IMG/VR virus record: IMGVR_UViG_2671180360_000013 | Span: 1-24,008 of that record | Strand: one strand, 5' to 3' | Length of the DNA: 24,008 nucleotides | From: a virus | Lineage: Duplodnaviria; Heunggongvirae; Uroviricota; Caudoviricetes | Notes under the pieces: generated by a model | Databases searched by the model: none | Told to the model about the DNA's origin: nothing | Seen by the model: only the letters and a program-made list of their open reading frames with translations | Shown here: in pieces, positions 6,945-8,625 of the stretch | How positions within the stretch are numbered: position 1 is the first letter of the stretch | Layout: each line of letters starts with the position of its first letter | Position numbers and translations under genes: made by a program

Positions 6945-7256
6945 TTAGGCGGCTGATGTTTCTTCTTTCAGGCTTTCGAGATATTTACGTGGGTCGTCGT
7001 AACATTGGCATTCGCTGTACCAATCCACCCAGCGATCAGTAAGCCCCATCTCTGATAAATCTTCATCGGTAAGGCTCTCATCCCACATCTCAAGGCCGTT
7101 AGCATTGCAGTAATCAGGCTTGATGTTGTTGTCATACTGAAAGGCGTCATAATCAGCCAGTGCGTCCATCAGACGAACACCCTCTTCAACACTTGCCACT
7201 TCTACAATGAACGGCTTCATAGGTACTTGCGGGATATGCCAGACACGTAATTTCAT
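6945..7256 (-). CDS. Ea10-position early protein
   Basis: Internal start MKLRVWHIPQVP preceded by GGAGG Shine-Dalgarno; position equivalent to lambda ea10 left of cIII. Confidence 0.55.
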   Translation of the reverse strand: MKLRVWHIPQVPMKPFIVEVASVEEGVRLMDALADYDAFQYDNNIKPDYCNANGLEMWDESLTDEDLSEMGLTDRWVDWYSECQCYDDPRKYLESLKEETSAA

Positions 7257-7267
7257 ATATCCTCCGT

Positions 7268-7300
7268 CAAAAAAATTGCCCTCACACTGGAGGGCAAAGA
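7268..7300 (-). terminator. Putative rho-independent terminator (tL-like)
   Basis: Minus-strand hairpin GCCCTCCAGTGTGAGGGC followed by AATTTTTTT, between the 156-aa gene and the ea10-like gene. Confidence 0.4.
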
Positions 7301-7399
7301 AGATTTCCAATAATCAGAACAAGTCGGCTCCTGTTTAGTTACGAGCGACATTGCTCCGTGTATTCACTCGTTGGAATGAATACACAGTGCTTATTCGTA

Positions 7400-7870
7400 C
7401 TAATAAAATACCCAATTTTCTGTTTCTTGGTTATGTCCAAAGTTATATTCAATATCTGGTGTTGATGTATCAATATTTTTCATCCCATCAACAAGAGTTG
7501 ATACAACAGCCAAATCTTGTTTTATTCTCATTAAATGGTATTTCTTCCGGCGCAATAAACTTTCAATAGCAAGTTTCTTCGTTGGGAATGCAAAAGATCT
7601 TTCTGCATTTTTTGCTACTTTCTTAATTGCATATCTATTTCTCCTTTGTTTCCATTCCTGTAACCACTGATTTGGTGCTGGTTTAAAATTAACAATCCAA
7701 TGCGCAGGAACCAACCATGCATAATGCTCTGTCTGATGAAAAGCTATATATTGAAGTGCGAATATTTTTATCCCATCTTCTTCAACTGTCGCCTGGAATC
7801 TCCAGAAAACAGGCATTCCATCATGTTCAGTTTCTAATTCAGGAAAAGGTACGCTCCATGATTTTGTCAT
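7400..7870 (-). CDS. Hypothetical 156-aa protein (AT-rich moron at the ral/sieB position)
   Basis: ORF with GAGGTGAG Shine-Dalgarno 5 nt before ATG; AT-rich relative to flanks; co-oriented with the pL operon between ea10 and N; no family recognised. Confidence 0.6.
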   Translation of the reverse strand: MTKSWSVPFPELETEHDGMPVFWRFQATVEEDGIKIFALQYIAFHQTEHYAWLVPAHWIVNFKPAPNQWLQEWKQRRNRYAIKKVAKNAERSFAFPTKKLAIESLLRRKKYHLMRIKQDLAVVSTLVDGMKNIDTSTPDIEYNFGHNQETENWVFY

Positions 7871-7928
7871 ATCTCACCTCAAATAAGTGGTTTGCTGCCT
7901 AATTTCATTTTCTGGCGACCAACACAAG

Positions 7929-8312
7929 TCACCTCGCCGTCAGTTGTTTGGATTTCCGGTAGCCTGCCGCGTAAATGGCTACGTTTGGAAGACATACACC
8001 AGTTTCTGGTTGCTTATGTCCAAACTCATTCGCGTACACAATGGCCGCTCGCTCCAGATTGCGTCTGTATTCTTTCTGTTGCCAGATCACGTCCTGTGCC
8101 ATGAACTTAATTGGCTTAGCGTCTTCTATACGCTCAGGCGTTTCGTGAGTACCTTTAGCCTGAATCTGCGCTCTGCTTAGAGTAGGGCGGTGTAATACTT
8201 CTGAACTTATTGCTTCTTCGCGGGCCAGTACGCCGTTAGCTAATGCCTTTACCTTTAAACGCTCACGACGACGAGAACGTGAATTGCCTTTGAACTGAGT
8301 TCTGCGTGTCAT
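7929..8312 (-). CDS. N: N-like transcription antiterminator, P22 gp24-type (not lambda N)
   Basis: Arg-rich N-terminus (GNSRSRRRERLKVKA) and C-terminus LPNVAIYAAGYRKSKQLTAR resembling recalled P22 gp24 tail; AGGAGG Shine-Dalgarno; first gene downstream of pL. Confidence 0.75.
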   Translation of the reverse strand: MTRRTQFKGNSRSRRRERLKVKALANGVLAREEAISSEVLHRPTLSRAQIQAKGTHETPERIEDAKPIKFMAQDVIWQQKEYRRNLERAAIVYANEFGHKQPETGVCLPNVAIYAAGYRKSKQLTAR

Positions 8313-8477: not shown

Positions 8478-8492
8478 GCGCTTTGTCAGCGC
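8478..8492 (-). promoter_or_regulatory. nutL boxB hairpin (P22-type GCGCUGACAAAGCGC)
   Basis: Minus-strand sequence GCGCTGACAAAGCGC in the pL leader upstream of N. Confidence 0.6.
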
Positions 8493-8549
8493 CGTAGATT
8501 CATATTCGAATCGTTGTATATTCACCGCCCTGGTGAGTAGTGCGTCCTG

Positions 8550-8625
8550 CTGATGTGTTTAGTATCACCGCCAGTGGTATTTGTGTCAACACCGCTAGAG
8601 ATAATTCATCACCGCAGATGGTTAT
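8550..8625. promoter_or_regulatory. pL promoter with OL1-OL2-OL3 operators (lambda type)
   Basis: TATCACCGCCAGTGGTA (about 8563-8579), CAACACCGCTAGAGATA (about 8587-8603), ATCACCGCAGATGGTTA (about 8608-8624); leftward -35 TTGACA and -10 GATACT on the minus strand overlapping OL1/OL2. Confidence 0.85.

Follow-up and report, generated by a model that had tools for sequence, protein, structure and literature searches.

A conserved 156-codon gene carried as cargo in an exchangeable expression slot behind antiterminator N of lambdoid phages

The window, i.e., the whole stretch of DNA that was analyzed, comprises 24,008 nucleotides of a Caudoviricetes virus (IMG/VR record IMGVR_UViG_2671180360_000013, positions 1 to 24,008). 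In its leftward early region a 156-codon gene follows the gene for antiterminator N, and the features that frame it are listed here from the promoter onwards.

8561 to 8589, minus strand: pL-like promoter (TTGACA, 17 nt, GATACT; 10 of 12 consensus positions)
8478 to 8544, minus strand: nutL, by alignment to the 933W annotation (locus record L001 4327-4393)
7929 to 8312, minus strand: antiterminator N, 127 aa, of the 933W/H-19B/HK97 type (PF25694 N_peptide, E 4.8e-15; phrog_271)
7868 to 7932, minus strand: left linker, with a relic of the 3' end of an N of the lambda/21 type (...TCVGRQKMKLGSKPLI*), the Shine-Dalgarno sequence GAGGTGA and the ATG
7400 to 7870, minus strand: the 156-aa gene, with ATG at 7870-7868 and TAG at 7400 (PHROG 1636; 18.6 kDa, pI 9.1)
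7353 to 7390, minus strand: imperfect hairpin with 17-bp arms directly after the stop codon (arms 82% complementary, no U-tract)
7270 to 7390, minus strand: right linker of 121 bp, holding hairpin and terminator, 99.2% identical to lambda 33925-34045, with a breakpoint at 7270
7269 to 7297, minus strand: intrinsic terminator (8-bp stem at 7297-7276 with 5 GC pairs, 6-nt loop, T7)
6945 to 7256, minus strand: P22 gp17-like gene (PF17420 'GP17', E 1.2e-55; phrog_1510) with the Shine-Dalgarno sequence GGAGG

The ATG-to-TAG frame reported by the first-pass annotation was recovered, together with the strong Shine-Dalgarno sequence ascribed to it (GAGGTGA at 7880-7874, its GAGG core 6 nt from the ATG) and a base composition richer in AT than that of its neighbours (GC 0.348 and GC3 0.248, against GC 0.49 for N and 0.46 for the downstream gene). 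By arithmetic, about 7% of random codons are stops at 35% GC, and 156 open codons would occur by chance with a probability of about 1e-5. This value, a dN/dS of 0.08 relative to the HK97 copy and 87 profile matches (see below) rule out a chance ORF and show that the gene is a genuine, conserved protein-coding gene. When compared with homologues of about 60% identity, dS is saturated and dN is 0.25-0.30.

The gene was proposed to belong to the pL operon, and this holds, as it is co-oriented with N (same strand, 58-nt gap) behind the pL-like promoter, which lies just upstream of the stretch aligning to the nutL annotated in 933W. An N of the window's type is annotated as N in both 933W and HK97. 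Read leftward, the order is pL (8589-8561), N, the 156-aa gene and the first good terminator (7297-7276). A terminator scan from pL to the end of the gene gave a single weak candidate, a 5-bp stem within N that lacks a U-run and was disregarded, and the spacer between N and the gene folds weakly and holds no terminator. Since no intrinsic terminator separates pL from the end of the gene, the gene is probably co-transcribed with N; Rho-dependent termination may occur between the two. A consensus scan of the minus strand from the gene to pL found no sigma-70-like promoter of the gene's own, and pL is repressed by cI, so the gene should be silent in a repressed lysogen. Judged from this arrangement, the protein is probably made within minutes of infection or induction and not in the repressed lysogen. 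In HK022-like prophages, a terminator lies between nun and the 156-aa gene.

On the plus strand, a promoter-like site at 7381-7409 (TACACA, 17 nt, TAAAAT) lies antisense to the 3' end of the gene and is kept in another locus record (L026). It agrees with the consensus at 9 of 12 positions and was dismissed as probably due to chance, since shuffled sequence contains more sites of this kind than the region does.

The gene had been described as followed by a terminator hairpin. Both a hairpin (7353-7390) and a terminator (7297-7276) are present, but they are separate elements: the hairpin next to the stop codon lacks a U-tract, and the intrinsic terminator lies about 100 nt beyond it. The 148-nt 3' region of the gene is unusually structured (-50.8 kcal/mol, z = -4.9), and the terminator element is annotated as 'terminator' in HK97, phage 21, mEp234, HK75 and O276.

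The gene beyond the terminator had been labelled ea10. This label does not stand, as the product is a PF17420 protein, with a match covering residues 19-116 of a TTG-started ORF, and BLASTP against lambda Ea10 gave E 0.27. Translation most likely starts at the ATG at 7256. In the window this P22 gene 17-like gene takes the place that ea10 has in lambda and 933W. The 316-bp stretch at 7269-6954 aligns to none of 933W, HK97 and lambda, and the P22 gp17-like gene is a second cassette swap immediately past the terminator. The P22 gene 17 product (PF17420, 'superinfection exclusion gene product 17') is likewise an accessory cassette of the pL region that is swapped at mosaic junctions, although the P22 gene 17-like gene is unrelated in sequence to the 156-aa gene and lies on the other side of the terminator.

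Elsewhere in the window, a gene for the Stk serine/threonine kinase (8967-10013, minus strand, 35% GC) is accompanied by a co-oriented ORF at 10007-10468. The kinase matches the PADLOC defence models mad6 (E 7e-50) and PD-T4-6 (E 1e-37). As stk lies upstream of a terminator at 8801-8780, it belongs to the repressor-side transcript, as in the 933W annotation.

Alignment to 933W, HK97 and lambda delimits the segment that carries the 156-aa gene. Positions 8553 to 7270 of the window align to 933W (L001 4318-5601) at 99.1% identity, and positions 8695-7270 align to HK97 at 97.1% identity. Lambda homology resumes at 7390, 10 nt past the stop codon of the gene, and the homology to all three phages stops at 7270, straight after the T-run of the terminator. 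The gene therefore replaces sieB-orf28-ral exactly relative to lambda, and its earlier assignment to the ral/sieB interval is borne out by the 99.2% identity of the right linker to lambda. The lambda counterpart of this linker (33925-34045) is the stretch between ral and ea10, which may correspond to tL2a. The right linker was found in 325 phage records, about four times the number that carry the 156-aa gene, and several of these annotate a terminator in it.

The left linker (7932-7868), just after N, is 93-97% identical in phages 21, 1717, mEp234 and CUS-3, all of which carry other cargo. Read in another frame (38-aa ORF at 7879-7995, minus strand), the 58-nt spacer in front of the gene still codes for the C-terminal residues of an N of the lambda/21 type (...TCVGRQKMKLGSKPLI*). 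This spacer is thus the fossil of a lambda/21-type N, which means that the cassette formerly stood behind such an N and acquired the present 933W/P22-type N by recombination. Collectively, our results show that the 156-aa gene is cargo in an exchangeable expression slot right behind N (or Nun) of lambdoid phages, and that the left side of this slot provides the ribosome-binding site and the start codon, and its right side a hairpin and an intrinsic terminator. The gene can accordingly be filed as an accessory cassette of the lambdoid pL operon.

Recurrence of the gene at this locus was confirmed in other lambdoid phages. Upstream genes were surveyed in 77 IMG/VR loci that carry the gene at at least 99% protein identity with enough upstream sequence. 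The upstream gene was an N of the 933W/P22 type in 39 loci, an N of the lambda/21 type in 18 and an HK022-type Nun in 11, and four N/Nun types were found in front of the gene altogether. At the 18 loci of the lambda/21 type, 8 nt separate N from the gene, whose Shine-Dalgarno sequence includes the TGA stop codon of N. Across phages of these different N types the gene has spread at at least 97% identity.

The content of the slot varies between phages. In phage 21 the cargo is ral alone, and in 1717, mEp234 and Sakai Sp5 it is an acidic 83-86-aa 'VT2-Sap20' protein, whose gene in 1717 begins at the same ATG as the 156-aa gene. CUS-3 carries ral and a 140-aa 'hypothetical' protein that is hydrophobic by eye, and phi367 carries a small ORF, ral and the 156-aa gene in tandem. 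HK022 has no cargo: its right linker comes straight after nun and is split by an IS903 with a 9-bp target duplication (L098 5494-5601 and 6659-6678). Sakai Sp5 was considered as a carrier of the 156-aa gene and rejected, as its slot holds the VT2-Sap20 gene (ECs_1180). Mutual exclusion between ral and the 156-aa gene was also rejected: none of 80 loci had ral, but phi367 has both. A simple reading of the gene as a substitute for ral fails on the same tandem arrangement, which argues that the two genes are probably not redundant. In phi315, phi367 and their relatives, which carry the 156-aa gene, the anti-defence genes reported by DefenseFinder are only methyltransferases, Ral and Gam (PMC12502783).

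The sequence of the gene is already catalogued. At the DNA level it is 98.7% identical to L0079 of 933W and to ORF-60c of Stx2 phage I, and 98.7-99.6% identical to the copies in the best 30 of 80 matching phage records. At the protein level it is 98.7% identical to HK97 gp45, and the phage copies including gp45 lie at 98.7-99.4% identity over the full length. The phi24B name of the gene is vb_24B_11c, and the RefSeq entry is WP_000167595.1. In 933W, HK97 and phi24B the same gene stands in the same place after N with the same terminator downstream, and no difference of substance from the window's gene was found; a single residue (L12 for S12) separates the window's protein from the common allele. 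The first-pass annotation could not assign the protein to any family. It does, however, fall in PHROG 1636 (function unknown), with a match over residues 1-156 of the 156-position profile at E 2.7e-111, and is the same protein as 933W L0079 and HK97 gp45.

Copies of the gene were found in 80-85 phage records. Of 5426 complete E. coli genomes, 598 carry it, with as many as four copies, and the annotation is always 'hypothetical protein'. Homologues at 55-99% identity come from Enterobacterales only. A profile search of 1.8 billion cluster representatives gave 87 matches to the family, about 70 of which are 130-160-aa proteins at 20-25% identity, and all of the matches belong to PHROGs of unknown function. 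Every member of a diverse family alignment (83 of 83) matched the PHROG 1636 profile. Full-text literature searches under L0079, HK97 gp45, vb_24B_11c, WP_000167595 and AAD25424 found no study of the gene, nor was it found in the literature on HK97/933W/Stk exclusion, lambdoid hotspots and anti-defence. Among the hits examined from a phi24B lysogen expression study, vb_24B_11c is absent.

The family extends to phages without N, such as T1-like phages and marine prophages. The T1-like phage Bas81 carries a homologue at 62-64% identity, and no integrase or repressor is found among its 97 annotated features. Early operons of Bas81, of NX263 (Salmonella), of a Vibrio phage and of a metagenomic phage have the homologue in first or second place. 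In several prophages it adjoins xis and int at the distal end of the early-left operon, and in a Cronobacter prophage the order is N, an 88-aa ORF, the homologue and cIII. This 88-aa ORF (L010 5252-5518) encodes a C2H2-like motif (CPLCGKKF...HINDYH) and is absent from the gene calls of the contig. Neighbours of the distant homologues include Lar, Mom, orphan DNA methylases and a Tad2-like protein. Distant homologues are also found among genes for Erf, RecT, YqaJ, SSB, RdgC and RusA, and next to ParB-like proteins.

In T1-like phages the homologue heads a five-gene island (Bas81, L004 3501-5770; NX263, L003 3501-5901) in which the gene for a ParB-like protein begins 11 nt on, and the last gene is annotated as a RusA-like resolvase in Bas81 and as a DNA polymerase III beta subunit in NX263. 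A distant homologue is likewise two genes from a ParB-like protein in VLCpiS10a, an unrelated 60-kb Klebsiella phage (L006 3959-5694). The ParB-like neighbour may reflect a functional link or a coincidence.

Searches of Pfam, NCBIfam, PADLOC and PDB sequences, with the single protein and with an 83-sequence profile, gave nothing significant. The sole match in PADLOC-DB 2.0, Cas1_II (E 0.018, 12 bits, 45 residues), is noise. AlphaFold performed poorly with 23 close homologues (pLDDT 60) and gave a confident model with 83 diverse sequences (pLDDT 96, pTM 0.83). In this model, strands at residues 19-30, 33-46 and 50-55 are accompanied by short helices and a strand at 83-86, followed by a 33-residue helix (98-130) and an ordered C-terminal tail. 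The product is thus predicted to be a soluble alpha/beta protein of 18.6 kDa with a long three-stranded beta-sheet and a fourth strand. Comparison with PDB chains by fold and sequence found no significant similarity, which includes a lack of significant fold likeness to known DNA- or RNA-binding domains. In BFVD, 14 models match the predicted fold (E <= 1e-3, TM 0.45-0.65), and all 14 are uncharacterised proteins from phages of Proteobacteria and Bacteroidota. Though catalogued, the gene matches nothing characterised in function or fold.

The protein is basic (pI 9.07; 21 K+R versus 18 D+E), and its charge is unevenly distributed, with a net charge of -5 for residues 1-56, +13 for residues 57-131 and -5 for residues 132-156. 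Basic residues are kept across the distant family at positions 24, 75, 83, 84, 87, 92, 98, 108, 109 and 118, and only G33, T47, K87 and A101 are near-invariant. The conserved E46 of the family is Q in the E. coli clade, the window's protein included. The central charge and the ten conserved basic positions argue for binding of nucleic acid or an acidic partner and not for catalysis, i.e., the pattern of charge and conservation fits a binding protein better than an enzyme. A basic surface is nevertheless compatible with many roles.

Among known systems, Ral of lambda is the closest in placement, as it occupies the same slot (from the 3' end of N to the 121-bp element), operon and orientation. 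However, Ral has 66 aa against 156 aa for the window's protein, and the two are unrelated by sequence (BLASTP E 24; no match in Pfam or NCBIfam). In lambda, ral is placed past tL1 and depends on N; the window's gene, by contrast, has no intrinsic terminator in front of it. The protein is also unrelated to lambda SieB (BLASTP E 0.21), in line with the initial description of an ORF unlike ral and sieB. SieB is expressed in the lysogen from its own promoter against the direction of pL, whereas the window's gene is co-oriented with pL and no promoter site was found from 7871 to N. Compared with morons, the gene has the deviant GC and the downstream terminator, but a promoter of its own was not found in the minus-strand consensus scan. 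By its place at the front of an early unit the gene resembles T7 Ocr (gene 0.3), and its product would be made before host defences act. Ocr and ArdA are strongly acidic DNA mimics. The 156-aa protein, by contrast, is basic, with a net charge of +13 over residues 57-131, and has no sequence or fold likeness to them; an Ocr-like DNA mimic was therefore ruled out.

The wiring to N, the spread at at least 97% identity over four N/Nun types and the presence in T1-like phages together point to a selected accessory function that is needed very early. We tentatively favour a basic early protein that binds nucleic acid or a partner and serves counter-defence or host takeover in a way distinct from Ral. 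The gene would ride the first N-independent leftward transcript together with N, and during lytic growth the protein would counter host defences or help the phage to take over the host. Its target would be a component of host immunity or nucleic-acid handling, or else the phage's nucleic acid itself, and binding to this target would let early development proceed. Counter-defence is favoured because the same slot holds ral, because the next gene in the window is P22 gp17-like, because distant homologues adjoin Lar, Mom, orphan methylases and a Tad2-like protein, because the cassette has spread at high identity across unrelated N types, and because such proteins need very early expression. Of these, the argument from gene position is weak, as early-left operons also house recombination, regulatory and host-killing genes, and an 'anti-restriction' role is a positional guess. 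Two further points count against the counter-defence reading: DefenseFinder reported no such gene beyond methyltransferases, Ral and Gam in phi315, phi367 and their relatives, and the homologue of several prophages stands beside xis and int, well away from the operon's head.

A more far-reaching version of the counter-defence reading is somewhat doubtful: that the protein founds a family spread across phages, has a fold not represented in the PDB and neutralises a host immune system by an undescribed mechanism. Its basic face might, for example, bind a nucleic-acid signal or a nucleic-acid-sensing defence protein. Lambdoid phages would then have hard-wired the gene to N, through a shared transcript and sometimes a shared stop codon and Shine-Dalgarno sequence, so that the protein is made before anything else.

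The protein may instead help the phage in its own nucleic-acid transactions, either in transcription elongation or termination with N or Nun (through RNA polymerase, Rho or Nus) or as an aid to recombination or replication, which we consider rather unlikely. The tight linkage to four N/Nun types, with the N stop inside the Shine-Dalgarno sequence in 18 loci, would suit such a helper, and so would the conserved basic surface and the distant homologues among Erf, RecT, YqaJ, SSB, RdgC, RusA and ParB-like neighbours. However, an N-specific role is not general, since the family occurs in phages without N, and a slot that is empty (HK022) or otherwise filled in many lambdoid phages argues that the gene is dispensable for core functions. 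The predicted fold also lacks significant likeness to known DNA- or RNA-binding domains.

An improbable alternative is that the protein modulates host physiology or the choice between lysis and lysogeny by binding and inhibiting a non-immune host protein, in the manner of cIII, an inhibitor of FtsH, or Kil, an inhibitor of FtsZ. No target can be named for it, and a lysogeny-specific role is hard to reconcile with the homologue in T1-like phages without annotated integrase or repressor, even though the gene shares operon and timing with cIII, kil and gam, encodes a small accessory protein of a phage-restricted family, and has spread across N types at an identity that suggests a backbone-independent benefit.

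Superinfection exclusion or abortive infection by a prophage, i.e., expression in the lysogen that blocks other phages, is very improbable despite the replacement of sieB by position, the moron-like AT-richness with a terminator downstream and the nearby prophage defence gene stk, as the gene has no promoter-like site of its own on its strand, is co-oriented with the cI-repressed pL, is parted from nun by a terminator in HK022-like prophages, has no meaningful PADLOC match and has a 62-64% homologue in a T1-like phage without annotated integrase or repressor. The candidacy for exclusion or abortive infection proposed by the first-pass annotation was thus an over-reach, given the missing promoter and the Bas81 homologue. 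Its observation is otherwise partly confirmed: the gene is real, and one neighbour was mislabelled.

Roughly one complete E. coli genome in nine has the gene, as do 933W, many further Shiga-toxin phages and the model phage HK97, and after 25 years in the databases its product is still without a structural relative. We regard the gene as a candidate well worth experiments, not as a discovery. If the counter-defence reading is true, the counter-defence catalogue would gain a new fold and probably also a new target, and the protein could bear on the establishment of Stx phages in new hosts.

The slot, flanked by conserved linkers, also makes it simple to collect further candidate accessory genes from lambdoid phages. 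The VT2-Sap20 gene, likewise uncharacterised, is another such candidate, located at L103 1900-2160 in 1717, at L104 1908-2159 in mEp234 and at L106 4721-4972 in Sakai Sp5 (ECs_1180). The VT2-Sap20 protein ends in ...NKAA, like Ral.
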